Of a stretch of 14,092 nucleotides of DNA, positions 1 through 13,921 are shown piece after piece. Origin of the DNA: a virus (Duplodnaviria > Heunggongvirae > Uroviricota > Caudoviricetes). The notes under the pieces were generated by a model. That model worked only from the letters and a program-made list of their open reading frames with translations. It did no database searches and was not told the DNA's origin. The position numbers and the translations under genes were made by a program. The DNA lies in the IMG/VR virus record IMGVR_UViG_2541047894_000002, positions 1-14,092 of that record. One strand, written 5' to 3'. Position 1 is the first letter of the stretch. Every line of letters starts with the position of its first letter.

Positions 1-396
1 GCAACACCAAAAGCGGTAAAGGCCGCGTATGACCTTGCTAACGGGAAATACACTGCACAGGACGCCACCACAGCGCGAAAAGGTCTTGTCCAGCTCAGTA
101 GCGTCACCAACAGCGATTCTGAAACGCTCGCCGCAACACCAAAAGCGGTTAAGGCAGCGTATGATCTTGCTAACGAAAAATATACCGCACAGGACGCCAC
201 CACAGCGCGAAAAGGCCTTGTTCAGCTCAGTAGCGCCACCAACAGCGATTCTGAAACGCTGGCGGCAACGCCAAAGGCGGTTAAGACAGCGTATGACCTT
301 GCTAACGGGAAATACACTGCACAGGATGCCACCACGGCGCGGAAAGGTCTTGTTCAGCTTAATAGTGCCATCAACAGCGATTCTGAAACGCTGGCT
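1..396 (+). repeat. Three tandem 132-bp (44-codon) near-identical repeats inside the tail fiber gene; a fourth copy starts at 397 and diverges after about 30 bp
   Basis: Repeat unit gcaacaccaaaagcggt...gattctgaaacgct(c/g)gc(c/g/t) restarts at 1, 133, 265 and 397 with only a few substitutions. Each encodes ATPKAVKAAYDLANGKYTAQDATTARKGLVQLSS(V/A)TNSDSETLA. Window begins inside the array, so more copies may lie upstream. Confidence 0.9.
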
Positions 397-1746
397 GCAA
401 CACCAAAAGCGGTGAAGTCTGCCTATGACAATGCTGAAAAACGTCTTCAGAAAGATCAGAACGGTGCGGATATTCCGGGAAAGGATACCTTCACGAAAAA
501 TATCGGTGCCTGTCGTGCTTATAGCGGTGCTTTGAGCACTGAATCCGGAAACTGGACAACCGCTCAGTTTATTGAATGGCTGGATTCCCGTGGTGCATTT
601 AATCATCCGTACTGGATGTGCAAAGGCTCCTGGTCATATGCAAATAACAAAATCATTACGGATACCGGATGTGGTGATATCCACCTGGCTGGTTGTGTCG
701 TCGAGGTCATGGGAACTAAATCTGCAATCACTATCCGAGTGACCACGCCGACAACATCAAGCGGTGGCGGTACAACCAGCGCGCAATTCACTTACATAAA
801 TCATGGGGACGGCTACTCCCCCGGCTGGCGTCGTGACTGGAATCGTCAGGGCGACGCAATGACCGGAACGATTAATCAGGATGGCGGAAGCCAGAATGCC
901 TATATGTCTACGGCCTTATGTTCAGGCACCAGAGGCGGCAAAAAATATCTCAGAAAGTTTCGTGGTGGAGAAGGAGACACTATCTGGCATGAAACAGTAC
1001 AGGCTGGGGTAATTCGCTGGGCGACAGGTAATACTGATGCTCAGGAAGAATTATCACTCAGCTCCGCTTATGGTCTCCGTTCTAGAGGTGAAATTACATC
1101 ACTCAGTGCTAATGGTCTGCGCATTGCTTATGGCAATTATGGATTCTTTATCAGGAATGATGGTGGCAGCACATATTTAATGCTGACGACCTCTGGCGAT
1201 AAATTTGGGACATGGAACGGTTTAAGGCCGCTGACTATCAATAACGCTAATGGCGGAGTGTCAATGGGGCATGGCCTGAGTGTTACTGGTGATATTGTCT
1301 CAAGTACCAAAGTACGTGCCGGTAGCGGGAAAAAACTCACGGTCAGCAGCAGTAATACATCCACGAAGGAAGCCGCATTCAATTTGTGGGGAAACTCAAG
1401 TCGCCCGGTGGTAGCTGAATTAGGTGATGATGCAGGCTGGCATTTTTACAGCCAAAGAAATACAGATAACAGCATCACTTTTGCTGTTAACGGGCAGGTA
1501 TCACCATCTAACTATGGCAACTTTGATTCACGTTATGTCCGGGATATTAGACTTGGTGGTGCGTCATCCTATAAACCAGCAAATAACGGGACAACATGGA
1601 CGCATCAGACTCCATCTGGTTGCGCGTATACCGGGATAATTGTTCAGGATACAGGCTCAAATTCTGCCGATAATATTGGTGGTGTTTATTACAGACCAAT
1701 TCAAAAAAATATTAATGGCACATGGTATAACGTATCGAGTGTTTGA
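1..1746 (+). CDS. Phage tail fiber protein (5' partial; frame 1 is open from base 1, ORF track shows only from the internal GTG at 412)
   Basis: Frame 1 has no stop from 1 to the TGA at 1744-1746. The repeat motif KGLVQLSSATNSDSETLAATPKAVK resembles the lambda Stf / phage tail fibre repeat. C-terminal 440 aa is Gly/Ser/Thr/Asn-rich as in receptor-binding domains. Followed by a tail fiber assembly gene with overlapping stop/start region. Confidence 0.85.
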   Translation, partial: ATPKAVKAAYDLANGKYTAQDATTARKGLVQLSSVTNSDSETLAATPKAVKAAYDLANEKYTAQDATTARKGLVQLSSATNSDSETLAATPKAVKTAYDLANGKYTAQDATTARKGLVQLNSAINSDSETLAATPKAVKSAYDNAEKRLQKDQNGADIPGKDTFTKNIGACRAYSGALSTESGNWTTAQFIEWLDSRGAFNHPYWMCKGSWSYANNKIITDTGCGDIHLAGCVVEVMGTKSAITIRVTTPTTSSGGGTTSAQFTYINHGDGYSPGWRRDWNRQGDAMTGTINQDGGSQNAYMSTALCSGTRGGKKYLRKFRGGEGDTIWHETVQAGVIRWATGNTDAQEELSLSSAYGLRSRGEITSLSANGLRIAYGNYGFFIRNDGGSTYLMLTTSGDKFGTWNGLRPLTINNANGGVSMGHGLSVTGDIVSSTKVRAGSGKKLTVSSSNTSTKEAAFNLWGNSSRPVVAELGDDAGWHFYSQRNTDNSITFAVNGQVSPSNYGNFDSRYVRDIRLGGASSYKPANNGTTWTHQTPSGCAYTGIIVQDTGSNSADNIGGVYYRPIQKNINGTWYNVSSV

Positions 1747-1748
1747 TT

Positions 1749-2282
1749 ATGATGCATTTAAAAAATATAAAACCGGGCAATCCAAAAACCAAAGAACAGT
1801 ACCTGTTAACTAAAAACTCCAGCGTTGTCTGGTTATTCGATGAAGATGGTAAAAACTGGTATGATGAACAAAAGAACTTTCAACCAGATACTATAAAGAT
1901 TGCATATGATGAAAATAATGTCATATGCGACGTGCAAATGGATGTAACTGCAATTTGCCCAGAAGGAAAAAGTGTTGTCGAGTTGCCCAATATCACAGCA
2001 AACCGACGTGCTGATATTTCAGGTAACTGGATGTTTAAGGATGGCGCAGTCATTAAACGTGTGTATACCGAAGAAGAGCAACGATTGCAGGCTGAAAACC
2101 AGAAACAAAGGTTATTACAACAGGCCAGAGAAAAAACGCAGTTCTGGCAAACCCAGCTTACTTTGGGGATTATCACTGATTCAGACAGACAGCAACTGAT
2201 GAACTGGATGCGATACGTGCAACAGATTGAAGCCACTGATACCTCTGAATTGCCCGTTACATTTCCGGAACAACCAGAATAA
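1749..2282 (+). CDS. tfa: Tail fiber assembly protein (Tfa / P2 gpG-like chaperone)
   Basis: N-terminus MMHLKNIKPGNPKTKEQY... and C-terminus ...TDTSELPVTFPEQPE match the conserved Tfa family pattern as recalled; sits immediately downstream of tail fiber gene. ORF track start at 1743 is a TTG; ATG at 1749 preferred. AT-rich relative to neighbours. Confidence 0.85.
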   Translation: MMHLKNIKPGNPKTKEQYLLTKNSSVVWLFDEDGKNWYDEQKNFQPDTIKIAYDENNVICDVQMDVTAICPEGKSVVELPNITANRRADISGNWMFKDGAVIKRVYTEEEQRLQAENQKQRLLQQAREKTQFWQTQLTLGIITDSDRQQLMNWMRYVQQIEATDTSELPVTFPEQPE

Positions 2283-2315
2283 ACGATAAGACCAGAATAC
2301 CGGGTCTTATCGTTT
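2281..2315. terminator. Putative bidirectional hairpin terminator between convergent tfa and U
   Basis: aaACGATAAGACC-agaataccg-GGTCTTATCGTtt: 11-13 bp perfect stem at 2283-2293 / 2303-2313, followed by tttctgtt on + strand; lies in the 41-bp gap between the tfa stop (2282) and U stop (2324). Confidence 0.45.
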
Positions 2316-2323
2316 CTGTTAAA

Positions 2324-2812
2324 TCAGAACAGCCCTTTAACTGAACTGGCCGCGTTGTTAATGGATGCTGTCACCTTATCTTTGAAGCCGGACAGCATAT
2401 CGCTGAACGATGAGGATTGCAGGCGCTCCCGCAAATCCTCATCACAGCGTTCAAGGGTCAGTGAAAATTCTATCTTTTTCGCCTTACCGTAGCGATCAAA
2501 CTCGGAACTGGTCGTATTCGTTCCGGTCAGGACATACATGCCGTAAATCTGCCCGACGCCATCAATAAGAGGCCAGGGGCGTCCTGTATACGCCTGCGTG
2601 GTCAGCAGCGACAGCGACACTTCGCCACCTGTAATTTCAGGATAAAGCACACCAGAAAGAACAATACGATCATCGCCTGCCCCGATATACTGCCAGCTTG
2701 CTGAACGGTTAACGCGTTCATTTTTCACATGTCGCCAGCTTTTATTTTGCTGTAACTGCTGATGCGGCAATGTGCGCAGCTCAAAAACAAACATGCCGTA
2801 GATCATCATCAT
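2324..2812 (-). CDS. U: Tail protein gpU-like
   Basis: Translation MMMIYGMFVFELRTLP...SWRH...GAGDD...LSGVLYPEITGG...WPLIDG...IYGMYV...TTSS resembles P2 gpU as recalled. ORF track start 2818; GAGGAG RBS abuts the first ATG, so the ATG at 2812 (8-nt spacer) is preferred. 6-nt gap from T stop (2825). Confidence 0.8.
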   Translation of the reverse strand: MMMIYGMFVFELRTLPHQQLQQNKSWRHVKNERVNRSASWQYIGAGDDRIVLSGVLYPEITGGEVSLSLLTTQAYTGRPWPLIDGVGQIYGMYVLTGTNTTSSEFDRYGKAKKIEFSLTLERCDEDLRERLQSSSFSDMLSGFKDKVTASINNAASSVKGLF

Positions 2813-2824
2813 GGCCATGACTCC

Positions 2825-5641
2825 TCAATCTTTATCGTAAAAACTGCCACGCCCGGCACGGGCGCGCCGTTCCATTTCTGCCCTGACCATTTCACCGACC
2901 AGTTTCGCTAGTTCGCGGGGATTCTGTGTAACAACGTTATGCAGATGAACATGAATTTCACCGCCAAATCCGGAGGCAACAGGTTCCCGGTTACGGGAAG
3001 TTGCAGGAACTGATGCCACTGGCGATCGTATGGCCTCCGCCACCGGGCGGGAGCTGGCCGCAACAACAGGGACCAGCGCCGGAGGCAGCGGAGCCGGAAC
3101 CACGGGTGTGATATTAATTGCGGTGGCAGGCTTACTGACCTGCGCAATCTTCCGCTCCTGCCACTCCCCACGAACAACAAGTGCGCGGGGCAGGTTCTTA
3201 AAGACAATATCGCCGGGGCCAATGCGTTTTTTCGTCTCATCAACCAGCTTACCTGTGTTATCAGCAATTTTGCTGAGTCTGCGTAGCGTCCCGGTATTGC
3301 TGTCTGTGAGCGGTTTATTGTCTTTGGGTTTATCACCTCCGGTGCCATTGCCATTTTCCACAGGCTTCGGCGGATTGATTTTCGCCAGGTCCCCCTGAAG
3401 CAAGGCAACCTTGTCCTGAAGAATGGCCGCACGCTGTGCGTCTTCGATTTTCTTTCTCGCCCTTTCCGCTTCATCCGGAAGAACACCGAGTTTTTCAAGT
3501 ATCCACGCCAGCGTATCCAGCAACATTTTTGCAGGCGTCAGAACAAGCTGTAACGCGCCACCAAGAACGTTACCGAATATCTCGCCAGCACTGGTACATT
3601 TATCCAGCGTTTCCTTGCTGGACTCCATCGGTGACAGCAGCGATTTGAACCAGTTAAACACCTGGCTGATCCCGCTTCCGATTGCGTCAAAAACAGGACC
3701 AAACTGTTCAAAGGTTTCGCGCAACGGGATCAGCCTTTCCATAATCCCGCTGAACACCCCGGCAAAAAATGCCCTGATGGGATCCCAGTATTTCGAGATA
3801 AGAACGGCAGCTCCGGCAAGCGCAGCCACGATAAGACCAACCGGACTGAATAGCGCCCCGATAGCACCTCCCAGCAAAGAAACGGAACCCGTCACCATTC
3901 CCCATAGTGCTGGCAGGACCCTGACAGCATTCATTGATCCGGTCAGGAGAGAAAAACCAAGACGCAGTTTTGCCAGCGGGCCAGCAAGCACACCAATAGC
4001 CAGCGACAACGAGCCAACCGTTGCAGTCATTGCCAGCAACGCACCGCCTGCTATCAGTAGCTGGCGCGTCAGTACCGGATGGGCCTGCGCCAGCGCCGTC
4101 ACCCTTGATACCACCCACGTGAGCCACTGCGTGACAGAACGCAGCGGACCGTCAATCAGATCTGCAATGCGGATGCGCAACCCTTCCCATGCACTGCCGA
4201 GTGATTTCAGATCGCCGTCAAGGTTGTTGGCCATAACCTTTGCTGTGCGTTCAGCCTCACCGCGCGCGCCTTCAAGTTCTTTTCTCAGTTTGGGTAAGGA
4301 ACCGTCACCCGCTGCATCAACGAGCGCCATAAACGATGTGAAAGCCTCTTCTCCGGCAATGTCCTTAAAGAACGATACCCGGTCAACTTCCCCGTATTTG
4401 CGGGTGGCTTTATAAAGGTCAGCCAGCACATCCTCCATCGGGCGCATTTTGCCGTTCGCGTCAGAGACTGCCACACCAAGCTCTTTCAGCGCCTCTGCTG
4501 CTGCCTTTGGCGGTGATGCCAGACGAGCCAGGCTGGCACGCATTGCCGTCCCGGCATCACTCCCTCTGATACCCATATTCGCCAGCACGCCCGCCATCGC
4601 TGCGGCCTGCTCCAGCGATATTCCCAGCTTACCCGCCACCGGACCTGCATATTTCATGGTTTCACCCAGTGCGCGAAGGTCAGTGTTGGTACGGGTAAAC
4701 GCTGCGGTGAGTGTGTCACCGACCCGGTCCATCTGGTCAGCAGAAAGGCCGAACTGCGTCAGGATATTTGAGCCAATATCTGCCGTCTCGCCGAGATCCA
4801 TACCGCCAGCCGTTGCCATGCTCAGCACGCTGGGAAGCGCAGCCTGAATGGCCTGCGGAGTGAAGCCAGCCATTGCAAGAAATGCCTGTCCACTGGCGGC
4901 ATCGCCTGCGGTAAACTGCGTTTCAGAGCCAAGTTTTAACGCCTGCTCACGCAGCGCCTTAAACTGCGGGCTGTTCTGGTCGATTCGCGTCAGTGCCTGA
5001 ACGCGGGACATCTCTTTGCCGAACCCGATCGCAGGCTGCAAAAAACGCCCCGCAGCATAGCCGCCCGCCGCTGCCGCACCAATTGCCAGCGCACCACCTG
5101 TTTTCAGTTTTCCCGCAGTTTCCTGCGCGCGCGAATACCGCTCACGCGCCCGCGTTACACGCGCAAGTGCCTGCCGTTCGCGTTCAAGCTGGTTGTTGTA
5201 CTGTTCGGTGCGTCTGATGGCCTGCTGGATGGTGTTATCGCTGCCTGTCAGGGAAATGCCGTGGCGTTTCAGCTCTCCGCCAAGCTCCCGCATTTTCTGA
5301 ATTTCCCGTGTGCGCGATTCATTCAGGCGTTCAAGCCGGGTGCTTAACTGCTGCATCAGCTTTTGTTGCTTTTCGCTGAGCACTGTACCCGTGCGTTGTA
5401 ACTGATTAAGGGCGTTAAGCTGGCGTCGTGCTTTCACGATACCCGCATCCGCTTTACTGACAGCGTCGCGGGCGCGCTCAAATGAACGCGCCTGACGCTC
5501 GAGATTTTTGATCGCCCCCTGCGTTCGCTGGATGGAGTCACCAAACTGCCCCATCAGGCGGCGGGCGTTTTCGGCAGGCCGGGTCAGCCTGTCAACGGCG
5601 CTGAAAGCGACCCGGATATCAAGAGTCTTCATTGTCTGCAT
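2825..5641 (-). CDS. T: Tail tape measure protein (gpT-like), about 939 aa
   Basis: Large Ala/Gly/Leu-rich protein with coiled-coil N-terminal part and hydrophobic glycine-rich central segments, downstream of the E/E' chaperone pair as in P2-type tail modules. Start ambiguous: ATG at 5641 (MQTMKTL...) or 5632; ORF track reports upstream extension to 5668. Start overlaps end of E'. Confidence 0.85.
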   Translation of the reverse strand: MQTMKTLDIRVAFSAVDRLTRPAENARRLMGQFGDSIQRTQGAIKNLERQARSFERARDAVSKADAGIVKARRQLNALNQLQRTGTVLSEKQQKLMQQLSTRLERLNESRTREIQKMRELGGELKRHGISLTGSDNTIQQAIRRTEQYNNQLERERQALARVTRARERYSRAQETAGKLKTGGALAIGAAAAGGYAAGRFLQPAIGFGKEMSRVQALTRIDQNSPQFKALREQALKLGSETQFTAGDAASGQAFLAMAGFTPQAIQAALPSVLSMATAGGMDLGETADIGSNILTQFGLSADQMDRVGDTLTAAFTRTNTDLRALGETMKYAGPVAGKLGISLEQAAAMAGVLANMGIRGSDAGTAMRASLARLASPPKAAAEALKELGVAVSDANGKMRPMEDVLADLYKATRKYGEVDRVSFFKDIAGEEAFTSFMALVDAAGDGSLPKLRKELEGARGEAERTAKVMANNLDGDLKSLGSAWEGLRIRIADLIDGPLRSVTQWLTWVVSRVTALAQAHPVLTRQLLIAGGALLAMTATVGSLSLAIGVLAGPLAKLRLGFSLLTGSMNAVRVLPALWGMVTGSVSLLGGAIGALFSPVGLIVAALAGAAVLISKYWDPIRAFFAGVFSGIMERLIPLRETFEQFGPVFDAIGSGISQVFNWFKSLLSPMESSKETLDKCTSAGEIFGNVLGGALQLVLTPAKMLLDTLAWILEKLGVLPDEAERARKKIEDAQRAAILQDKVALLQGDLAKINPPKPVENGNGTGGDKPKDNKPLTDSNTGTLRRLSKIADNTGKLVDETKKRIGPGDIVFKNLPRALVVRGEWQERKIAQVSKPATAINITPVVPAPLPPALVPVVAASSRPVAEAIRSPVASVPATSRNREPVASGFGGEIHVHLHNVVTQNPRELAKLVGEMVRAEMERRARAGRGSFYDKD

Positions 5642-6148
5642 TCCCGCTGCGAAGTGCCGCCCGCTCACGCCAGCTAACCACTTCGCCGGGCGTCATCATG
5701 AAGATTTCGGCGGGCGACCAGTTAAAAATAACGGCAATATCTGCCACAAAGTCTTCTATGTGCTCAAAGCACACAACCGTGATCAGGCTTCCGTCGCCTG
5801 TTCGTTCTTCCCGCCAGAGTCCGCACCGCTCAAAAAATTTACGGCAACCACACATAACTGAATAAAGTCACGGGATGCCATTTTTTTGATCGTCACTTCA
5901 TCCAGTCGCGGTGATGTCACGCGTGACAGCAGCGTAAACATGGATTCCGCTTTCAGATTCAGCACATCAGACAGCGACAAATCTCGCAGAGATCCAGCCT
6001 GCTCAATAGCTCCGGTGATCTCCACATACGTGATTTTTTCGCCGCCTCGCTCAATTGGTTGGGTAAGTTTTACGCCACGCTCACTGGTTTCTTTCACAGT
6101 GTCAGCAACGACCGTGTTTTCGGTATCGATGTTTTTCGTCTCTTTCAT
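5619..6148 (-). CDS. E+E': Tail assembly chaperone E+E' fusion produced by programmed -1 ribosomal frameshift (predicted about 176 aa)
   Basis: ORF 5619..5855 lies in the -1 frame relative to E (start coordinates 6148 mod 3 = 1, 5855 mod 3 = 2). Slippery heptamer T_TTT_TTG occurs in E in the correct register (0-frame codons aaT TTT TTG at - strand 5837..5831). After the slip the reading continues ...NFF-ERCGLWREERTGDGSLITVVCFEH... to the TGA at 5621-5619. Confidence 0.6.
5783..6148 (-). CDS. E: Tail assembly chaperone gpE-like (121 aa, 0-frame product)
   Basis: Located between tail tube FII and tape measure T as in P2; AAGGAG RBS 8 nt upstream of ATG at 6148; contains the frameshift heptamer near its 3' end. 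Confidence 0.8.
   Translation of the reverse strand: MKETKNIDTENTVVADTVKETSERGVKLTQPIERGGEKITYVEITGAIEQAGSLRDLSLSDVLNLKAESMFTLLSRVTSPRLDEVTIKKMASRDFIQLCVVAVNFLSGADSGGKNEQATEA
5831..5837 (-). other. Programmed -1 frameshift slippery site TTTTTTG (P2 E/E' type)
   Basis: + strand caaaaaa at 5831-5837 = - strand TTTTTTG; in-frame as T_TTT_TTG relative to the E reading frame; -1 frame open downstream for 70 codons. Confidence 0.6.
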
Positions 6149-6202
6149 CAGGAAACTCCTTTCAGTCAGAGGCGACGCACTGCGCCGCCTGCATATTACT
6201 TA

Positions 6203-6715
6203 TCAGCCAAGCCCGAGCGCAGAACGGATGCGATCGGGCACAATGTCCTTGCCGTCCTTCCGGTAAATGAAGTTCAGCAGGTCAATCTCCCACAACGGGC
6301 GATCGTTAACACTCAGCTTGTAGTAGGTGTTTTTAATGGCGTAAGTGTGTGATGTGGCTTCGCCCTGTTTGGCTTCCCCCATATCAATTTCCGTCACACG
6401 TCCGCGCATTTCGACTTCATACAGGTCGCTTTCTGCATCGGTGTAATATTCACCCGCAAAACGCAGCAGCGTGCCGTCAATCGTGCCGCCATACTTAAGG
6501 AACAGCTCACGAACTGCGCCCCCCATGACAAAGCTCGCATCAAGCGCGGAGTCGTCCAGACCGAGATCAATACTTACCGCACCCATCATGCCACCACCCC
6601 GGTAGCTGTCGGTTTTGCGCGTCAGCTTAGGCAGAGTGACGGACGTCACCTTACCCACTTCGTTTTCACCATCCACAAACAGCGTAAAAAAGCGAAGATG
6701 TTTTGGCACAGCCAT
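6203..6715 (-). CDS. FII: Tail tube protein (P2 FII-like)
   Basis: MAVPKHLRFFTLFVDG...VTLPKLTRKTDSYRGGGMMG...DLGLDD...RFAGEY...VEMRGR..EID.GE.KQGE matches the P2 FII pattern as recalled; GGGAGG RBS; start overlaps FI stop (TGATG). Confidence 0.85.
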   Translation of the reverse strand: MAVPKHLRFFTLFVDGENEVGKVTSVTLPKLTRKTDSYRGGGMMGAVSIDLGLDDSALDASFVMGGAVRELFLKYGGTIDGTLLRFAGEYYTDAESDLYEVEMRGRVTEIDMGEAKQGEATSHTYAIKNTYYKLSVNDRPLWEIDLLNFIYRKDGKDIVPDRIRSALGLG

Positions 6716-7899
6716 CAGGCACCTCCCAGCACCGCAAATGCGGGTTCAAAGTATTCATCAGTAAACGTCTGGTAAAGCTCCATGTCTTCCAGTGGCGGAA
6801 CGGGCGTATATTTGTAGCGAATACGCACACGTCCCTGACGTAAATCCGTGGTGCTGTTATCCACCACGTCATACCAGCACTCCGCGCCAATCAGTTTCCC
6901 GGCAGTAACCAGTGAATCCAGTTTTGCCCTGATGGCACTGATAACATCCTTCACGTTCGCAGGCGTCAGTGGACTGTCGATGGTTTCAAACTGCGCTTCC
7001 GCAATTGAATCAGCCAGCACCTGTGCGGTTCGGGTATACACCTCAAAGATGTAGGCGTTCGTTTCCGGTGTGCGGTTGCCCCAGAAGCGGAACCCGTTGC
7101 GACGAATAATGGTCGTGATTTCTTTGTTGTTAAGGCTGTTGGCATCACTGTCTTCGGCCTGCAACGACCAGAAAACATGCCTCGACATCCCCAGCACATT
7201 TTTAACCGGAACGTTGGACAGCGATTTGTGCCATCCCTGCTCATGGTCAATGTACGCACGAAGGCCGCACGCATAGGCAGGCGCGGGGAACGTTTCGTTT
7301 TTGCCACTTTTCGGGTTGTAGGCGATGAAGTCCGGCCATAAGAGCATCACCTCACGTTCGTTGAATTTCTGGCGGTAGGTAATCGCCGCAGCCATCGTGT
7401 TACAGCCGTGACATGAGGCATACACAAACGCGCGCAGTTTACCTGCAATCACGCACAGGGATTTTGTTACAGCCTCCGTGTCCAGCTCCGGCGCGGCCAG
7501 AATACGCGGACGGTATCCGATGCTTTCATCCTGCTCTGCAACAAGCAGCGCATACATCCCCGTATAGCTGCCGTCATCCTCAGAACCACCGATAACCAGT
7601 TGATCCTGCGTCTTTCCGTCTTCTTCTTTGTGTTCAGCCACGCGAACGACGATCACCTTTGTGCTCACCTGGTCTGCGATGGCCTTAAGCGCACGATAAA
7701 GCGTCCCCGTTGTCCCGCATTTTCCCAGCACGTCATTGACGCGGGTCAGCAGTGTGGGCTTGTTCAGCGGGAACAGCTTCGCGTCCGCATCATCCGCCGT
7801 TGCCACGATACCGATAACGCTGGAATCAACATCGTTAATCGCTGTTACCAGGTCGGTATTTTCCGTAACACGGGCACCATGAAAACGAGTTTCACTCAT
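6715..7899 (-). CDS. FI: Contractile tail sheath protein (P2 FI-like)
   Basis: 394 aa; motifs ...FPLNKP...LRAFVYASCHGC...WPDF...EQGWHKSLSNV...IRRNGFRFWGNRT...NYTRTAQV...RYKYTPVPPLE... match P2 FI sheath as recalled; AAGGGG RBS 8 nt upstream of ATG at 7899. Confidence 0.9.
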   Translation of the reverse strand: MSETRFHGARVTENTDLVTAINDVDSSVIGIVATADDADAKLFPLNKPTLLTRVNDVLGKCGTTGTLYRALKAIADQVSTKVIVVRVAEHKEEDGKTQDQLVIGGSEDDGSYTGMYALLVAEQDESIGYRPRILAAPELDTEAVTKSLCVIAGKLRAFVYASCHGCNTMAAAITYRQKFNEREVMLLWPDFIAYNPKSGKNETFPAPAYACGLRAYIDHEQGWHKSLSNVPVKNVLGMSRHVFWSLQAEDSDANSLNNKEITTIIRRNGFRFWGNRTPETNAYIFEVYTRTAQVLADSIAEAQFETIDSPLTPANVKDVISAIRAKLDSLVTAGKLIGAECWYDVVDNSTTDLRQGRVRIRYKYTPVPPLEDMELYQTFTDEYFEPAFAVLGGA

Positions 7900-8056
7900 A
7901 GCTTCAGCCCCTTGTATCCGTTAAATGATTCGGCAACAATCATCACCCACCACGCGCGTAATCTCACCCCTGCGCCGTTCTCCCGCCACGGCGACAACAA
8001 AAAGCAGTAACCCCCTACGCACGCACATGCGACCATGCCGCACAGGGAGGGAACAG
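7900..8056. promoter_or_regulatory. Divergent intergenic region between FI (-) and D (+); presumed promoters for both
   Basis: 157-bp non-coding gap flanked by divergently oriented start codons with RBSs on each side. No exact TGT-N12-ACA (Ogr/late-promoter type) dyad found by eye; only one TGT in the region (7913-7915). Confidence 0.3.
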
Positions 8057-9166
8057 ATGACCGATACCACCATGCAATTGCTCAGTCAGAGCACAGACCC
8101 CGTGAAAATGCCGGATTTTGATATTCTCGCGGAGGGGGAAACACTGTCCGGCGTGGCAGAGCGCCTGATGAGCCTGTCACTGACCGACAACCGGGGATTT
8201 GAAGCGGACCAGCTCACCATCACGCTGGATGATGCGGATGGTCAGTTGCAGCTACCGCCACGGGGCGTGCGCCTGACGGTTCTCATTGGCTGGAAAGGAG
8301 AACCGCTGACAGAAAAAGGCACTTACATTGTTGATGAAATCGCTCACGAAGGACCGCCGGACAGGCTGACGGTTTCAGCCAGAAGCGCAGATTTTCGGGA
8401 TGAATTTAACGTTAAACGTGAGGTGTCCTGGCATGATGTGACCGTTGAGCGCGTGGTATCCGCCATCGCTCATCGGTATGGTCTGAAACCGCAAATCAGC
8501 GAAATGCTGATGGATATAGAAATCGACCACGCCGACCAGACCGAAGAAAGCGACATGTCCTTTCTTACGCGCATGGCGGAAATGCTGGGCGCAATCACCA
8601 CAGTAAAAAGCGGTAATCTGTTATTCATCATGCCCGGTGGTGGCGTGAACGCACAGGGCCAGCCGTTGCCATCGTTCGCCATCACACGCAGCAGCGGCGA
8701 TCGCCATCAGTTCCGCATTGCTGACCGCGAGGCGTATACGGGTGTACGCGCCTACTGGCTTGATCTTAATTACGGGAAAAAGAAAAAAGTCAGCGTGAAA
8801 CGCCGCAAACCGCAAAAACCCAAAAAGGAGAAAAGCAGCAGCCGTGAAGGTGATTATATGGAAGGCGCGGAAGGCAACGTGTTTGTGTTACGCAAGACTT
8901 ATCAGAACGAGCAGGCAGCAAGACGCGCAGCGGCGGCAAAGTGGCAGCAGCTACAACGCGGAGCCGCAGCGTTCTCCATCACACTGGCACGTGGACGCGC
9001 AGAACTCTACCCCGAAATGCATGGCACGGTAACAGGATTTAAAAGCGAAATTGATAATCAGGACTGGATTATTGCAAAAGCCGAGCACACCATTGATAAC
9101 AGCGGCTTTACCACGCAGCTTGAACTTGAGGCAAAAATCCCGGAATGGATAGCAGAAACAGCTTGA
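8057..9166 (+). CDS. D: Tail protein D (P2 gpD / phage late control D family)
   Basis: 369 aa from ATG at 8057 with GGAGGG RBS 5 nt upstream; motifs LSLSLTDNRGFEADQL.I.LDDADGQ, SARSADFR, SWHD.T, FLTR.AE, ITRS.GDRH.F.IADR.AYTGV.A.W, lysine-rich KKKKVSVKRRKPQKPKKEK linker, REGDYMEG..NVF, FSI.LA.GRA, NSGFTT.LELE match gpD as recalled. ORF-track N-terminal extension from 7925 rejected. Confidence 0.85.
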   Translation: MTDTTMQLLSQSTDPVKMPDFDILAEGETLSGVAERLMSLSLTDNRGFEADQLTITLDDADGQLQLPPRGVRLTVLIGWKGEPLTEKGTYIVDEIAHEGPPDRLTVSARSADFRDEFNVKREVSWHDVTVERVVSAIAHRYGLKPQISEMLMDIEIDHADQTEESDMSFLTRMAEMLGAITTVKSGNLLFIMPGGGVNAQGQPLPSFAITRSSGDRHQFRIADREAYTGVRAYWLDLNYGKKKKVSVKRRKPQKPKKEKSSSREGDYMEGAEGNVFVLRKTYQNEQAARRAAAAKWQQLQRGAAAFSITLARGRAELYPEMHGTVTGFKSEIDNQDWIIAKAEHTIDNSGFTTQLELEAKIPEWIAETA

Positions 9167-9211
9167 TCAGCTAAGATGTATTGCACGCCTACCCCCTTCA
9201 GTTTTCTGACT

Positions 9212-9235
9212 GTCCGCTCTGTGCCAAGAGCGGAC
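9212..9235 (+). terminator. Hairpin downstream of D (weak candidate terminator / island boundary element)
   Basis: GTCCGCTCT-gtgcca-AGAGCGGAC, 9-bp perfect stem, followed by atatataattt (AT-rich, not a clean U-tract). Lies at the GC-content transition into the AT-rich island. Confidence 0.25.
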
Positions 9236-9334
9236 ATATATAATTTCGTACTGTATCAATCGAAAGGAATCAGCTCCTTCCTATCTCAAATATGAGACAC
9301 TGCTTATAGCACCACTGGAAATTGGTTAAACATC

Positions 9335-11374
9335 TCAACTTTGCCAATCATCAGCTATCTGTTGCCAATTAACTTTCCGAGGTTCTTTTGTAGTGCTAGA
9401 CCACACATCCCAAAAATCAGGATCATCAGATTGCGGTCGTTGTTTTTCAGTAAGCTCTTTCATTCTAACTAAAACAGGAAGTTCTGAAGCCCATCCAAGT
9501 AAAATAGCATGCCTAGATGGTAACGATGGCAGCTCTCTCAACAGCCCTCTCATATTATCTGGAACAAGTCTATGTACTTGCTCTTGATCTCTATCATTAC
9601 TAATCCTGTGCAACAAAAAAGTATTACATTGAGATAAAACCGTCGGAGATAGCTCTGATGGCCTTTGGGAAGAAACAACAAGGCCTAGCCCAAACTTTCT
9701 TCCTTCCCGTGCAATCTTTTCAAACACCTTGCAACATATATCAGAGACTGACTGAGTTTCACTATCTTCCTTGTAACGTTTAATAAACGTATGCGCTTCT
9801 TCTGCAACTAAAACTGTTGGTAGCGGCCTTCCATTTAATCTTCGATAACGTTGTAGTGCTTCAAAAGCCACCCTAGAAATTACAGCTGTTACCAAATGAA
9901 TTATTTCATTTGGTACTAGAGATAAATCTATAACAGTTATAGATCCTTGTTCATTTTTACCGAGAAAAGTGTCTAACCAATTAGTTAAACTTATAGGCTT
10001 TACAGAATCATTGGTTACTGCACTAATACGAGTGTCACCTAGCATTGTTCGAATACGAGTCAAAAGAAACTCAACGAATTGTTCTGTACCTGTTTCTTGA
10101 GCCAGAGCTTCGAGATATGCGACAAAATCATCGCCTTTAAAACGCATAGGCGCATCTTCGCTTTTTGGAAGAAGTTCTTGTTCATCTCCCCCTAGAGCTG
10201 TATATGCATCTCTGAATCCATTAATCAACAACTCAATCTCGGAAACAACAGGCTTTGCTGGCCAAGAAGATCCACTTCGTGAAGAAAGATACGTATTTAT
10301 TGTGTTTATTAGCTTATCGAGCGATTTATCAACAATTCTCTCGTTTAAGATAGAAATACTATCTCTCCAAGAACCCAAAGTTTCAACCAAACCTTTAGCA
10401 GATCCACTATTCACATATATCTGACCTTGACTTGCCTGCTGTCTCATAGATACAAGAAGGATACCGCAAAAGCGTTTGGCTTGAATTTTCACATCATCTT
10501 CTGATAGAAGATTATTCCTCATTGCCCTCAAAGCACGACGTAGTAAAGGAAGTTGCACCTTTGAACTTGCTTGAGTGAAAGCAGCCCACTCAGAACTATT
10601 CCATAACCATGAAGGTACTTTAAGATCCATCTCTCCGACATCGATGTTAGCCTCTACACGTAATAGTTTACCCTTATATCTTGATTCTGGCCCTAAAGCT
10701 CTACTATATTCTCCGTTCGGATCAAGTATTATAAATCGAGCATTTGGAGATTTTCCCTGTTGTAAAACAGCATCAAGAGACCATTGAATTAAGCCGGCCA
10801 CCGAACATGATTTACCACTACCCGTATTACCTAAAACAGCTATATGTCGTCCGAAAAGTCTATCGGGGTCTACTTTTATTTCAGCATTGTTAGCTAGGGG
10901 GCTATCCCCTATTTTTACCCTTCTATTATCACCTGATTCAATTATTGATTGTAATTGTCGGTCAGTAGGCAAAAGCACAGAGTCACCAACCGAAGGGAAA
11001 GCATCAGTTCCTCTCGTGAACCTGAAACCTTCGTTTTTTCTATCAACTCTCAATGTACCAACTGGATTGATACTAAGCTTTTTAAGTGGGAAAGGAAGGT
11101 CTATCAACCCAAAATCTTGTAAGCCTCTTCTTTTGGGATATGGCGAGTTTTCTATTGCAATCCACTCAACTTGCCCAACAAGAAACCCGTCATCACTACG
11201 GATTAAAATATAACTATTTATTCTAGGAAAATTACGAGGCGCCCCACCTTGAAGTGATACTGAATCAGGAGAATCAATCTCTAAAGACACCCTAATTTCA
11301 TTAGGTGATACAAACTCAACAGTTCCAATTCTTAGTTGTTCTATTTTTTCTATTGGTAAATAACTCATTGTCAT
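9335..11374 (-). CDS. HerA-like (FtsK/HerA superfamily) ATPase, partner of SIR2 protein
   Basis: Walker A HIAVLGNTGSGKS; Walker B-like PTVLVAEEAHTF; GLGLVVSSQRPSEL (arginine-finger region typical of HerA/DUF87); N-terminal beta-rich region (GTVEFVSPNEIRVSLEID) consistent with a HAS-barrel. ATG at 11374 overlaps upstream stop (ATGA); GAGGT abuts that ATG, so ATG at 11368 (6-nt spacer) may be the real start. Confidence 0.8.
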   Translation of the reverse strand: MTMSYLPIEKIEQLRIGTVEFVSPNEIRVSLEIDSPDSVSLQGGAPRNFPRINSYILIRSDDGFLVGQVEWIAIENSPYPKRRGLQDFGLIDLPFPLKKLSINPVGTLRVDRKNEGFRFTRGTDAFPSVGDSVLLPTDRQLQSIIESGDNRRVKIGDSPLANNAEIKVDPDRLFGRHIAVLGNTGSGKSCSVAGLIQWSLDAVLQQGKSPNARFIILDPNGEYSRALGPESRYKGKLLRVEANIDVGEMDLKVPSWLWNSSEWAAFTQASSKVQLPLLRRALRAMRNNLLSEDDVKIQAKRFCGILLVSMRQQASQGQIYVNSGSAKGLVETLGSWRDSISILNERIVDKSLDKLINTINTYLSSRSGSSWPAKPVVSEIELLINGFRDAYTALGGDEQELLPKSEDAPMRFKGDDFVAYLEALAQETGTEQFVEFLLTRIRTMLGDTRISAVTNDSVKPISLTNWLDTFLGKNEQGSITVIDLSLVPNEIIHLVTAVISRVAFEALQRYRRLNGRPLPTVLVAEEAHTFIKRYKEDSETQSVSDICCKVFEKIAREGRKFGLGLVVSSQRPSELSPTVLSQCNTFLLHRISNDRDQEQVHRLVPDNMRGLLRELPSLPSRHAILLGWASELPVLVRMKELTEKQRPQSDDPDFWDVWSSTTKEPRKVNWQQIADDWQS

Positions 11375-12783
11375 ACCTCAACTTCGGCTGAATTACCTAA
11401 CTCTTTGAACTGCATAAAGCCTCTTTGTTTGAGCAACTCTGCCATCTTGATTGATGCTTTATCAATAGCTGGTTTAGGTAAATAGTTATCAACTAAAGTT
11501 TTGAAGTCTCCTAAATGATCTCCCATCAAAAGGGTAATCTGTGCTTTTCTTCCACTATTACTAATGAAACGCATAATTCTGCCAAGTGGATCGCCAAAGG
11601 CTATTATTACTATATGAGTGGAAGGTACCGTAAGCATGTCTTCAATTACTCTATTGATATGCTCATCACCAAAGCTATAACCATAAGTGACTAATGTGCT
11701 ATTTGGACGGCTAGTTGCTGCTGCCAGATCTCGAAATAGCTCAACATAAGGATACTCGGCTGTTTCTCTGTCTTTTACTGAATTAGGGTAAATCATCAGT
11801 TTTTCATAGCCATTGCTTTGATGACCTTCGGCTTCCAAAAACGGCTCAACAGAACGTGCTCCAAAGGGTAAGCCAAAGCGCCTAATCGCATTATTTTGTT
11901 CATGCCAATCAAGGGAACCATGAAGTTTAGTAAAACGTGCCACGCCCTCCAAGTATCTTGGTTCACCACGGATTCCAGGAGGATTATAATGATAATCAAC
12001 TTCTAATCTTGAGGATCGAAATACTGGAGCAATACTTCCTACAAAGCGATCAATAAGTCTTAAACCAGCAAGCTCAGCACCCACTTCAATAATACGGTCA
12101 TAATTTGTTGTAAAGATATGTAGCCTATCGCGAGTGGCAGTTCTACTTGCAAAGCTCATCAAAAAACTAACTAGATAGTTGAAAGTTTCCTCTTTCCGGG
12201 CTGGTTCAGCAGTTTTGATTAAATATTCTCCTTTAATTATAGATTTAGAAAACTCCCCCAAGCATCTAGAAAGCTCGCCTTTGAGCTCGCCCAAGTCTGC
12301 TTTTAAGTTTCTATAAGCAGAATAAGGAGGTGGCGGATTTTCTGGTTGAGGAGTATTTAACACCGTTAAAATTTCGAGACCTTTAATAAGTTCATTGATA
12401 GTTCTAATTTGATCTTCTATATTTCCTCTATCGCGACCTGCAGCTTTTGCAGCCTGAGTGGAAAATTCATCTATTTCGCTTTTACATACTTTTAAATCAT
12501 TAATCCACCCCATCCCTACTGGAGATAAACCTGTAGCTGATTTTTGAATAGCCGAGCTTAAGCCTGCACCGATTAATAAATTTAAATGCTCTGATTGGAA
12601 GAGAGCTGTTAGCCAGGGCTCAATATTTTGGCGCAATTTCTCAATTGATATTTCTGCCCCCTGTTCTCCCCATACACAGTTCTTCGAGAGGATAAAAGGA
12701 TGAGAATCAGCATGCTCGCCAGAATTAGATGATAGATCAATAATTTCTGATATACTGCCAACTTTTATATGTTGAATACTCAT
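11371..12783 (-). CDS. SIR2-family (SIR2_2 / DUF4020-like) protein, predicted NAD+-consuming effector
   Basis: Motifs in order: LNLLIGAGLS (Gly-rich NAD-binding loop), IFTTNYDRIIE (TTNYD), KLHGSLDW (catalytic-His region), YGYSFGDEHINRVIEDM. ORF track start at 12843 is TTG; ATG at 12783 (MSIQHIKVG...) preferred but weak SD, so start is uncertain (12783-12843). Stop overlaps HerA start. Confidence 0.75.
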   Translation of the reverse strand: MSIQHIKVGSISEIIDLSSNSGEHADSHPFILSKNCVWGEQGAEISIEKLRQNIEPWLTALFQSEHLNLLIGAGLSSAIQKSATGLSPVGMGWINDLKVCKSEIDEFSTQAAKAAGRDRGNIEDQIRTINELIKGLEILTVLNTPQPENPPPPYSAYRNLKADLGELKGELSRCLGEFSKSIIKGEYLIKTAEPARKEETFNYLVSFLMSFASRTATRDRLHIFTTNYDRIIEVGAELAGLRLIDRFVGSIAPVFRSSRLEVDYHYNPPGIRGEPRYLEGVARFTKLHGSLDWHEQNNAIRRFGLPFGARSVEPFLEAEGHQSNGYEKLMIYPNSVKDRETAEYPYVELFRDLAAATSRPNSTLVTYGYSFGDEHINRVIEDMLTVPSTHIVIIAFGDPLGRIMRFISNSGRKAQITLLMGDHLGDFKTLVDNYLPKPAIDKASIKMAELLKQRGFMQFKELGNSAEVEV

Positions 12784-13207
12784 AAATGCACTTCTTTTAT
12801 TTGTGTTAAAAAACATACTTTTGTAGAGGCAAACGAGTGCCAAGAGTATGAAACTTAGCGATTAAGTTCGAATCTTACACCTCCCAAAGCCTCTGAGAAT
12901 TATCAACCTAACCCAAAGGAACTCAATCAGCGTTTTATTTTAGCACGACTAAATAACTAGTAGATAGCGTCAAAGACAAACCGGGGAGATAAAAACTTAC
13001 AACACTGCCACCAGTAAAATCATCTACATACCAACAAGTTGCCTTCAATCACGTAGAATAATCCTACTAGTGCATAGTCAATCTCGACTACTTACTCAGT
13101 GAAAATTCAACTGCAAACTTCTGGTTTTTACTCAAAGCAAGCAGTTAGTTGGAATCAGTATTAGTACAACTTAGAATAATAGAAACACCACGTTAAGGGA
13201 GGTCGCT

Positions 13208-13468
13208 ATGTTCCGTTGTCCACTTTGTGGCGCGTCTGCCCGTATCCGCACCAGTCGTCCGGAAAATGACTCAAACACCGTGCGGCAAAAGTATTACCAG
13301 TGTAATAACCTGGAATGCGGCGTATGCTTCTCAACACTGGAAGCTTTTCATAAGTTCACATCAAAACACACCTCAGAAGTTCATTCTTCAGAAGACATAC
13401 CGTGGCAGGCTCTGCCAGCTTCACACAGGGGGAACAATCAGATGAGTTTGCCCTTATCTCAGAATTAA
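13208..13468 (+). CDS. ogr: Ogr/Delta-family zinc-finger late transcription activator
   Basis: MFRCPLCGASARIRTSR...YYQCNNLECGVCF: Cys-X2-Cys ... Cys-X4-Cys arrangement and N-terminal MF.CPLC....A..RTSR pattern of P2 Ogr as recalled; strong RBS AAGGGAGG 5 nt upstream; 86 aa. Confidence 0.85.
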   Translation: MFRCPLCGASARIRTSRPENDSNTVRQKYYQCNNLECGVCFSTLEAFHKFTSKHTSEVHSSEDIPWQALPASHRGNNQMSLPLSQN

Positions 13469-13528: not shown

Positions 13529-13792
13529 ATGGTCGGAGGGAATACCCGAAGGCCAGATGTGGAAAGGCCCCGGAAAACATCTCTGTTTAACCGAGGCCCT
13601 AACCGCATTACCTTGACAAGTGAAAGGTTAGCGCCTCTCCTGAAAAGGAGCAAGTGCTATGTCGCAAAAATCGCTTACGGCCATCACGTTCTGCGTGACG
13701 GCAATCCTCATCATCTGGATGCTGCACGGTTCGCTGTGCGAAATACGGATGAGCTTCTGGGGAGCGGAGTTTGCGGCGTTCTTACAGTGTAA
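13529..13792 (+). CDS. mok-like overlapping reading frame covering the hok-like toxin ORF (true start uncertain)
   Basis: ORF in a different frame (start 13529 mod 3 = 2, hok-like 13659 mod 3 = 0) spanning almost the whole toxin ORF and ending 7 nt before its stop, as in hok/mok/sok loci. No independent sequence support for translation. Confidence 0.3.
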   Translation: MVGGNTRRPDVERPRKTSLFNRGPNRITLTSERLAPLLKRSKCYVAKIAYGHHVLRDGNPHHLDAARFAVRNTDELLGSGVCGVLTV

Positions 13793-13799
13793 GCAGTAA
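13659..13799 (+). CDS. Hok/Gef-family type I toxin (46 aa small membrane peptide)
   Basis: atg tcg caa aaa ... cag taa encodes MSQKSLTAITFCVTAILIIWMLHGSLCEIRMSFWGAEFAAFLQCKQ: N-terminal hydrophobic helix followed by the SLCEIR motif and AAF, characteristic of Hok/Gef peptides. RBS AAAAGGAG 8 nt upstream. Below the ORF-track size cutoff. Confidence 0.65.
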   Translation: MSQKSLTAITFCVTAILIIWMLHGSLCEIRMSFWGAEFAAFLQCKQ

Positions 13800-13888
13800 G
13801 GAAACCGCGACGGGGGAGCAATCCCCCGTCACTCGGTTGCCAGGGTAAGGTCGATAAGGCACCCTATCTCACAGACATGAACAACAAA

Positions 13889-13921
13889 CCCGCAGCGTAA
13901 AAACTGCGGGTTTTCTTTTTT
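13889..13921 (+). terminator. Rho-independent terminator (likely 3' end of the hok-like mRNA)
   Basis: CCCGCAG-cgtaaaaa-CTGCGGG stem-loop followed by TTTTCTTTTTT. Preceded at 13809-13830 by a second hairpin GACGGGGGA-gcaa-TCCCCCGTC with a GNRA loop. Confidence 0.55.

Follow-up and report, generated by a model that had tools for sequence, protein, structure and literature searches.

In phage P2, the genes H, G, FI, FII, E, E+E', T, U, D and ogr all lie on one strand (NC_001895). The record annotates an "F operon; encodes FI, FII, E, E', T, U, D", the seven genes of which are co-directional and read from promoter PF, with D in last position and overlapping U. The same annotation describes a second arrangement of late transcription in which the experimentally mapped promoters PP and PO share one activator site, located between two divergent late units and approximately 55 nt from each start. 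A P2 consensus for the Ogr-type dyad is cited in PMC3931495. Among the P2-like phages, P88 (NC_026014; genus Xuanwuvirus, family Peduoviridae) has the named relatives PhiSM, 520873, 500465-2, P884B11, PhiR44_2 and Chuche; P88 can be induced and is lytic, PhiSM shows spontaneous activity, and SEN4/5, Salmonella phages of the genus Senquatrovirus, were identified as myovirus by electron microscopy (PMC5285337, PMC6456863, PMC5261728). We describe here a tail gene block that runs opposite to the P2 arrangement and relate it to these phages.

Results

A P88-like prophage with a flipped tail block

The window, i.e. the whole stretch of 14,092 nucleotides that was analysed (IMG/VR record IMGVR_UViG_2541047894_000002), is by nucleotide identity and gene order the right arm of a P88-like (Xuanwuvirus, Peduoviridae) prophage of Escherichia coli. 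Its tail region is 97.5% identical to P88 over 90% of window positions 1700-9300, with the order and strands of the genes identical, and for the region present in the window both identity and order place it in Xuanwuvirus. The closest prophage, in NZ_CP073589, matches the window at 99.6%, adjoins ihfA and has a complete P2-like gene set. The contractile-tail module of P2-like phages (Peduoviridae) was recognized by the presence of FI, FII, E/E' with a T6G site, T, U, D and an Ogr/Delta activator (Table 1).

Table 1. Coordinates of genes and predicted elements in the window
Feature	Position	Strand	Evidence
H, tail fibre gene, 3' part	<1-1746	+	Pfam Gp34_trimer 1.8e-26; PGAP "tail fiber protein" in NZ_CP073589
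tfa, tail fibre assembly gene (= P2 G)	1743-2282	+	Pfam Caudo_TAP 1.8e-34; 57% identity with P2 G
U, tail gene	2324-2818	-	Pfam Phage_P2_GpU 1.6e-38; 46% identity with P2 U
T, tape measure	2825-5632	-	Pfam PhageMin_Tail 3.6e-58; start per PGAP/P88 annotation
E' frame, GpE family	5619-5855	-	Pfam Phage_P2_GpE 1.7e-12
E, tail assembly chaperone	5783-6148	-	32% identity with P2 E; "tail protein" in P88 and NZ_CP073589 annotation
FII, tail tube	6203-6715	-	Pfam Phage_tube 7.5e-47
FI, tail sheath	6715-7899	-	three Pfam sheath domains; 45% identity with P2 FI
Predicted -10 of FI-operon late promoter, GATGAT	7939-7944	-	conserved A..AT in alignment of 29 loci
Predicted Ogr-type activator dyad, TCT-N12-ACA	7979-7996		within GTTCT-N12-ACAAC 7977-7998, centre 7987.5
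Predicted -10 of D late promoter, GACCAT	8031-8036	+	conserved A..AT in alignment of 29 loci
D, tail/baseplate hub, apparently a separate transcription unit here	8057-9166	+	Pfam Phage_GPD 4.5e-17; 49% identity with P2 D
Terminator-like hairpin 3' of D	9211-9236	+	consensus scan: 10 pairs, 6 G-C, then T-rich tail
ogr, zinc-finger late-gene activator	13208-13468	+	Pfam Ogr_Delta 4.4e-14; 40% identity with P2 Ogr

The initial annotation of this DNA had given the P2 order correctly and had placed H, tfa, D and ogr on the plus strand, with U, T, E/E', FII and FI opposite them on the minus strand, an assignment confirmed by the open reading frame listing and Pfam scans. The lengths of the two resulting intergenic junctions are likewise as first reported: the divergent gap from the FI ATG (7899) to the D ATG (8057) is exactly 157 bp, and the convergent gap between the stop codons of tfa (2280-2282) and U (2324-2326) is 41 bp. 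E' is entered from E through a -1 frameshift at the slippery heptamer TTTTTTG (5837->5831), and P2 has a frameshift annotated at the equivalent position. The D ATG is preceded by GGGAGGG. At the left end, H continues past the window boundary and contains 44-aa tandem repeats at approximately 1-430; a frameshift suspected in H from two open reading frames (29-415 and 412-1746) was ruled out, frame 1 being open from base 1.

The P2 F operon and the window share their gene set, T6G frameshift site, type of Ogr dyad and promoter geometry. The tail proteins, however, are only 32-49% identical to those of P2 (57% for tfa), and the window is thus not P2. Nor is the P2-type F operon architecture found in the window, where FI to U are inverted on the minus strand and D stands alone on the plus strand, divergent from FI over the 157 bp. 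P88 and the window are alike in this respect, with a 157-bp FI/D gap in both and 97.5% nucleotide identity over U-T-E-FII-FI-D, but they differ in their accessory segments: the segment between tfa and U contains a DNA invertase and an invertible alternative tail-fibre cassette in P88 but consists only of the 41-bp hairpin gap in the window, and the window, unlike P88, has a 4-kb SIR2-HerA insertion as cargo between D and ogr. SEN4 and SEN5 also have the block flipped, together with a compact divergent FI/D gap containing a perfect TGT-N12-ACA, although their D is only about 63% identical to that of the window and both genus and host differ.

Distribution and origin of the flipped order

The flipped order is present in 13 phage records, comprising P88 and 12 others. 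We used a 1.1-kb probe spanning the FI/D junction; of 5426 complete E. coli genomes, 1109 carried this junction intact, and the P2 U-D junction was intact in 1571 genomes of the same survey. All loci retrieved from IMG/VR were inverted (80/80). In a scan of one genome per species, every locus with a D of at least 60% identity to that of the window was inverted (28/28), and every locus with a D of at most 53.5% identity had the P2 order (52/52). The 28 inverted loci cover approximately 14 genera of Enterobacterales, namely Salmonella, Kosakonia, Klebsiella, Enterobacter, Citrobacter, Xenorhabdus, Photorhabdus, Providencia, Morganella, Yersinia, Hafnia, Rouxiella, Pectobacterium and Dryocola. 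A synthetic P2-style co-directional U->D junction assembled from P88-type sequences had no match in 1412 E. coli genomes. The initial annotation had asked whether the orientation recurs among P2-like genomes; it does, and it is invariant in the P88/SEN4 lineage. Of the three explanations that it offered, a lineage-specific architecture is accordingly the correct one.

Neighbour-joining trees separated inverted from canonical loci for each of four genes, with bootstrap values of 50/50 for D, FI and U and 49/50 for FII, while raw pairwise distances gave no clean separation of the two sets. Both phiCTX and the Mannheimia phage phiMhaA1 have the P2 order. Taken together, the division by D identity, the four gene trees and the order in these two phages point to one old inversion, which would most simply explain the data with one breakpoint upstream of the FI promoter and the other between U and D. 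Read from the two outgroup phages only (phiCTX and phiMhaA1), the direction of change suggests that the P2 order is ancestral. As judged from its distribution, the flipped FI-FII-E/E'-T-U block is a fixed, inherited order of a deep P2-like clade that extends across Enterobacterales. An in-place inversion of FI to U, as originally proposed, therefore holds as a comparison with P2 but not as a new rearrangement, because the order is inherited in the P88/SEN4 group.

A predicted shared late promoter region between FI and D

The features sought as marks of an Ogr/Delta-dependent late promoter of the P2 type were a TGT-N12-ACA dyad whose centre lies approximately 55 nt upstream of the transcription start, combined with a weak -10 and the absence of a good -35. 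An exact search of the window for TGT-N12-ACA returned nothing, because the dyad in the FI/D gap is one mismatch away from this pattern; it was revealed by comparison with the P/O gap of the prophage itself and with relatives. The P/O gap of the P88-type prophage holds GTTCT-N12-ACAAC identical to that in the FI/D gap, and these are the only two perfect occurrences of the motif in the 49-kb prophage locus. At the dyad position a perfect TGT-N12-ACA is found in 24 of 29 clade loci, a count to be read in light of the common ancestry of these loci, which makes them non-independent, and the dyad is conserved across relatives with a variable 12-nt spacer. In the alignment of the 29 loci, the two A..AT elements are symmetric, with a distance of 48.5 nt between the end of each and the dyad centre. 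The corresponding distance at P2 PF, from the dyad centre to the end of the -10, is 49.5 nt, and transcription was mapped as starting 7-9 nt beyond this point. The gap thus contains a candidate Ogr/Delta-dependent late promoter with a dyad, weak -10 elements and PF-like spacing.

From this conservation and geometry we infer the use of the two promoters, their start sites and their dependence on Ogr; the PP/PO pair of P2 was mapped experimentally, whereas the FI/D pair is predicted. The inversion would have moved the FI late promoter, including its palindromic Ogr dyad, to a position beside D, and one dyad in the 157-bp gap would then serve two back-to-back Ogr-dependent promoters, one directing transcription of FI-FII-E-T-U to the left and the other that of D to the right, just as PP and PO of P2 share a single site. 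We favour, with moderate confidence, a reading in which the FI/D gap forms a second bidirectional late promoter dependent on Ogr, which arose when the inversion moved the palindromic PF site beside D. D would be transcribed separately but still turned on together with the sheath and tube. As one of its options, the initial annotation had proposed that D is uncoupled from the sheath/tube operon, and this appears to be so for the transcript; uncoupling of regulation, on the other hand, is probably absent, since D adjoins the same conserved Ogr-type site as FI.

An arrangement in which the order is fixed in the lineage but D escapes control through the shared dyad is unlikely, although it fares best among the alternatives. 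D would here be driven by an independent constitutive or early promoter, or through an element such as the conserved CGCGCGCG tract. The weakness of the D-side -10 is compatible with this, and a sigma-70 consensus scan flagged neither of the weak hexamers, GATGAT or GACCAT; a conserved GC-rich tract also separates the dyad from the D-side -10 and has no counterpart on the FI side. However, the clade-wide mirror symmetry of the -10-like elements around the dyad, its match to the geometry of PF and the precedent of a shared site at PP/PO argue for joint control of FI and D.

The convergent tfa/U junction

The perfect hairpin first reported in the tfa/U gap was confirmed, with a stem of 12-13 bp formed by approximately 2282-2293 and 2303-2314. 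Its folding energy is -20.0 kcal/mol on the plus strand and -20.9 kcal/mol on the minus strand (z = -5.2 and -4.4, respectively, against shuffled sequences). The hairpin (2282-2314) is a probable bidirectional transcription stop that would close the convergent tfa/U end to transcription from either side. Its tails are TTTCTGTT and TTTATTCTGG only, both short T-tracts, and it is absent from the output of the terminator consensus scan. Most other P88-like prophages are homologous to the window only from approximately 2313-2319 onwards, and P88 and L005 have hairpins in the same place that are non-homologous to that of the window; by this comparison the hairpin is part of a variable tfa-side module.

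Rearrangement, inversion switch and assembly

A recent inversion private to this strain, in which a P2 prophage had its D gene split from the operon and tail assembly perhaps crippled, is very improbable. The one observation in its favour is the contrast with P2 gene order. Against it stand the divergence of the tail proteins from P2 given above, the sharing of the order with 1109 E. coli genomes, 13 phage records and 28 loci of other species, and the plaques and tailed particles made by phages of the flipped order (PMC5285337, PMC6456863, PMC5261728). The genuine rearrangement entertained by the initial annotation is thus not a new event (1109/5426 E. coli genomes and 28/28 related loci with this order, 0/1412 with the opposite).

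To a comparable degree we discount a programmed invertible segment, in which the block would be a very large G-segment-like switch operated by the serine DNA invertase found beside U in many relatives. In P88 and other relatives the invertase gene does immediately adjoin the U end of the block, but the window has no invertase, and the invertase repeats of P88 (I1-I3) bracket only the tail-fibre tip cassette. A search for recombinase targets at the junctions found no inverted repeat pairing 2283-2323 with 7900-8056, and P88 likewise has no inverted repeats bracketing the block. The opposite orientation was found in none of 1412 E. coli genomes, and a single orientation in 80/80 and 28/28 loci, such that the locus shows neither the crossover repeats at both ends nor the two orientations of Gin/Cin/Hin-type systems. 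The old inversion itself may possibly have originated in a past invertase-mediated event at a pseudo-site that left no trace.

Least probable of all is an assembly artefact with the block mis-oriented, also raised initially, for which the unusual order alone speaks: both junctions recur in complete genomes obtained independently and in phages sequenced by many laboratories on many platforms, and no flanking repeats able to mislead an assembler are present. As the orientation is the common arrangement of a populous lineage, the very outcome that the initial annotation had set against them, the rearrangement and artefact readings both fail.

Discussion

We hold with high confidence the account as a whole, in which the window belongs to a P88-like prophage whose gene order is fixed in its lineage and most simply goes back to one inversion, with predicted late promoters that share a dyad. 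The flipped order is visible in every database record of the P88-like group. The papers on P88, PhiSM and SEN4/5 (PMC5285337, PMC6456863, PMC5261728) mention neither the inversion nor an FI/D promoter, and a literature search on Xuanwuvirus, P2-like Ogr and late divergent promoters, and opposite orientation returned no description of the inversion.

Phages of the flipped order are viable, P88, PhiSM and SEN4/5 being active myoviruses. Because the flipped block is the fixed, inherited order of a large working branch, the P88/SEN4 group, it is ordinary: the inversion that was flagged is the normal build of a common, named and viable P2-like group and leaves little to act on. It does show that P2 gene order is unsafe as a template for the annotation of all Peduoviridae, with approximately one fifth of complete E. 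coli genomes carrying the flipped version. The comparison also yields a testable prediction, namely that expression of the sheath/tube operon and of D is driven from one and the same palindromic Ogr site. If this is true, a bidirectional FI/D promoter would explain the tolerance of the inversion, and D would be a separately tunable monocistronic late gene. Two positions for cargo would have been opened, at the tfa/U junction (invertase, acetyltransferase) and in the D/ogr gap (SIR2-HerA and others), and just two bidirectional promoter regions may suffice for the whole late programme of the lineage.

A P88-like tail module with a flipped gene block

The region belongs to the P2-like tail module and to the P88-like group. 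ORF calls and Pfam scans bore out the gene map and strands of the initial annotation, including an FI/D gap of exactly 157 bp, and the P2 reference record (NC_001895) agrees with its description of P2, in which H, G, FI, FII, E, E', T, U, D and ogr run in one direction and D closes the F operon. A P2-type slippery heptamer for the E/E' frameshift, TTTTTTG, was found at 5837->5831. The region does not have the F operon architecture of P2, and identity with P2 itself was rejected because the tail proteins are 32-49% identical to those of P2 (57% for the fibre assembly gene tfa, the P2 G equivalent). From U through D the DNA shares 97.5% identity with Escherichia phage P88 (genus Xuanwuvirus of the Peduoviridae; NC_026014), whose annotation shows the same order, strands and 157-bp gap, and a further 12 phage records match at 95-97%. 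The entire window matches, at 99.6%, a prophage adjoining ihfA in E. coli MFDS1006657 with a complete P2-like gene set. Within window 1-430, H carries 44-aa (132-bp) tandem repeats that are near-identical to each other; across the matched span, the closest genome exceeds the window by 131 bp, possibly one H repeat more or less.

Positions of the tail genes and predicted promoter elements in the window
Feature	Position	Strand	Basis
Tail fibre H	frame open from base 1, to 1746	+	ORF list, Pfam
Fibre assembly gene tfa	1743-2282	+	ORF list, Pfam
gpU	2324-2818	-	ORF list, Pfam
Tape measure	2825-5632	-	ORF list, Pfam
GpE-family E' frame	5619-5855	-	ORF list, Pfam
E	5783-6148	-	ORF list, Pfam
Tube FII	6203-6715	-	ORF list, Pfam
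Sheath FI	6715-7899	-	ORF list, Pfam
-10-like GATGAT	7944->7939	-	A..AT in alignment; dyad centre 7987.5
-10-like GACCAT	8031-8036	+	A..AT in alignment; dyad centre 7987.5
gpD	8057-9166	+	ORF list, Pfam
ogr	13208-13468	+	ORF list, Pfam

The flipped order is fixed in a lineage

Of 5426 complete E. coli genomes, 1109 contain an intact match (coverage of at least 80%, identity of 95-99%) to a 1.1-kb probe that crosses the FI/D junction; an equivalent probe for the U-D junction of P2 was intact in 1571. Searching IMG/VR with the D protein gave 80 loci, all of which read U- T- E- FII- FI- D+ ogr+ over the stretch that each contig covers, and Salmonella phage SEN5, from another genus (Senquatrovirus; D ~63% identical), is also flipped. 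When four aligned D proteins were used to search a set in which each bacterial species is represented by a single genome, 80 loci were retrieved, and they split cleanly: the block is flipped in 28/28 loci whose D shares at least 60% identity with that of the window, and the P2 order holds in 52/52 with D at most 53.5% identical. Hosts of the flipped loci are Salmonella, Kosakonia, Klebsiella, Enterobacter, Citrobacter, Xenorhabdus, Photorhabdus, Providencia, Morganella, Yersinia, Hafnia, Rouxiella, Pectobacterium and Dryocola. The more distant phages phiCTX (Pseudomonas) and phiMhaA1 (Mannheimia) have the P2 order, and neighbour-joining trees recover the inverted/canonical split with bootstrap values of 50/50 for D, FI and U and 49/50 for FII. 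One scan locus, on a 226-kb contig labelled as a Firmicute ('Vagococcus sp. WN89Y', NZ_JBQPOM010000071.1), carries a P88-like prophage with D 95-98% identical to that of the window, and its label probably reflects contamination or a mislabelled assembly.

The arrangement is thus almost certainly fixed in the lineage, one of three options raised by the initial annotation; its other two, a private rearrangement and an assembly artefact, are ruled out by the same recurrence across genomes and phage records. The simplest account of these comparisons is that the block inverted once, long ago, on the branch to the P88/SEN4 clade and has been passed on in that form. An actively switching segment was rejected because no inverted repeats link the tfa/U junction to the FI/D junction, either in the window or in P88, the window has no invertase gene, and a synthetic query joining the U 3' end P2-fashion to the D 5' end was contiguous in 0 of the 1412 E. 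coli genomes in which both halves occur; the block showed none of the properties tested for a programmed invertible segment. Published work rules out a crippled tail: P88 can be induced and causes lysis of E. coli (PMC5285337), the Citrobacter rodentium phage PhiSM shows spontaneous activity (PMC6456863), and SEN4/5 are myoviruses by electron microscopy (PMC5261728). The flipped order is real but ordinary. Every public record of the group already displays it, though the published descriptions of P88, PhiSM and SEN4/5 do not remark on it.

Variable sites at tfa/U and between D and ogr

Cargo and mosaicism mark the tfa/U junction, whose position is equivalent to that of the P2 Z/fun locus. P88 (3800-6000 of its locus) and E. 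coli strain AVS0578 (3072-4983) carry a DNA invertase with an alternative, invertible fibre-tip cassette there, and in an O157:H7 strain the site is occupied by a serine O-acetyltransferase (4278-4850), whereas the window (2283-2323) has a hairpin alone. This exact junction occurs in only 28 E. coli genomes; in the remainder, homology begins at ~2313-2319, just past the U stop codon. The perfect hairpin noted initially at this convergent junction has a 12-13 bp stem within the 41-bp gap, with folding energies of -20.0 kcal/mol on the + strand (z = -5.2) and -20.9 kcal/mol on the - strand (z = -4.4). Its T-tracts are short and it is absent from the terminator consensus scan list; a terminator function is plausible as a prediction. 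Each variant has its own hairpin beside the U stop, non-homologous between variants, which would fit a conserved need to halt convergent transcription.

The gap between D and ogr (9167-13207) appears to be a further hotspot for cargo in this lineage. In the window it holds a SIR2-HerA anti-phage defence pair on the - strand (9335-12843; PADLOC, HerA 3e-252 and SIR2 3e-155) with a G+C content of 37-41% versus ~55% in the tail genes, and other E. coli genomes have different cargo, such as an Hxs radical-SAM system. The D-to-ogr distance is ~49 bp in 40 of 75 P88-like loci and 1-4 kb in the other 35. Beyond ogr lie a hok/gef-family toxin gene (~13659-13799, position transferred from the NZ_CP073589 and P88 annotations) and strong terminator-like hairpins (~13807-13913) just before the prophage end at ihfA.

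A predicted bidirectional late promoter between FI and D

At P2 late promoters Ogr binds a TGT-N12-ACA dyad (PMC3931495), and in the P2 record the divergent pP and pO share a single annotated activator site. In an alignment of FI/D gaps from 29 clade members (estimated at 122-198 bp), this dyad is perfect at one conserved position in 24, its 12-nt spacer free to vary; TCT-N12-ACA takes its place in the window (7979-7996) and in the Salmonella twin of the window, and TCT-N12-AGA in two Providencia loci. Anchoring the alignment on the dyad revealed, on both sides and read outward, a conserved A..AT ending exactly 48.5 nt from the dyad centre; in the P2 promoter PF, the -10 (GAAAAT) ends 49.5 nt from the centre of the PF dyad, with the mapped start 7-9 nt further. 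Across the 49-kb prophage locus, the variant of the window type, GTTCT-N12-ACAAC, is perfect only twice, in the P/O divergent gap and in the FI/D gap. An alternating CGCGCGCG-type tract (~8008-8028; same position in clade loci L088-L115) is conserved clade-wide between the dyad and the D-side -10, on that side only. Annotations at this gap probably include spurious calls: in the closest genome (25945-26798) the PGAP start of D lies 309 nt too far downstream, although the sequence equals that of the window there, and small 'hypothetical proteins' are drawn over the promoter region in P88 (11567-11698) and SEN5 (9300-9452).

Dyad conservation, the mirrored -10-like spacing, the shared P2 pP/pO site and the two-site distribution together led us to propose that one Ogr site would drive FI-FII-E-T-U leftward and D rightward, a mechanism that we consider reasonably likely on these sequence patterns. 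One option in the initial annotation was that the flip uncouples D from the sheath/tube operon; under our proposal D would indeed form a separate transcript, yet would stay within the late regulon through the Ogr-type dyad adjoining both D and FI. An inversion bringing a palindromic activator site beside D would have needed little further change for viability. In the closest prophage (8507-8662 and 14568-14580 of that locus), the S-like and V genes lie 12 nt from each other, too close for a P2-type PV promoter to fit, and both perfect GTTCT-N12-ACAAC sites fall in divergent gaps. The predicted bidirectional late promoter is the sole fresh content of the finding, and late gene expression in this lineage may start from no more than two bidirectional promoter regions.
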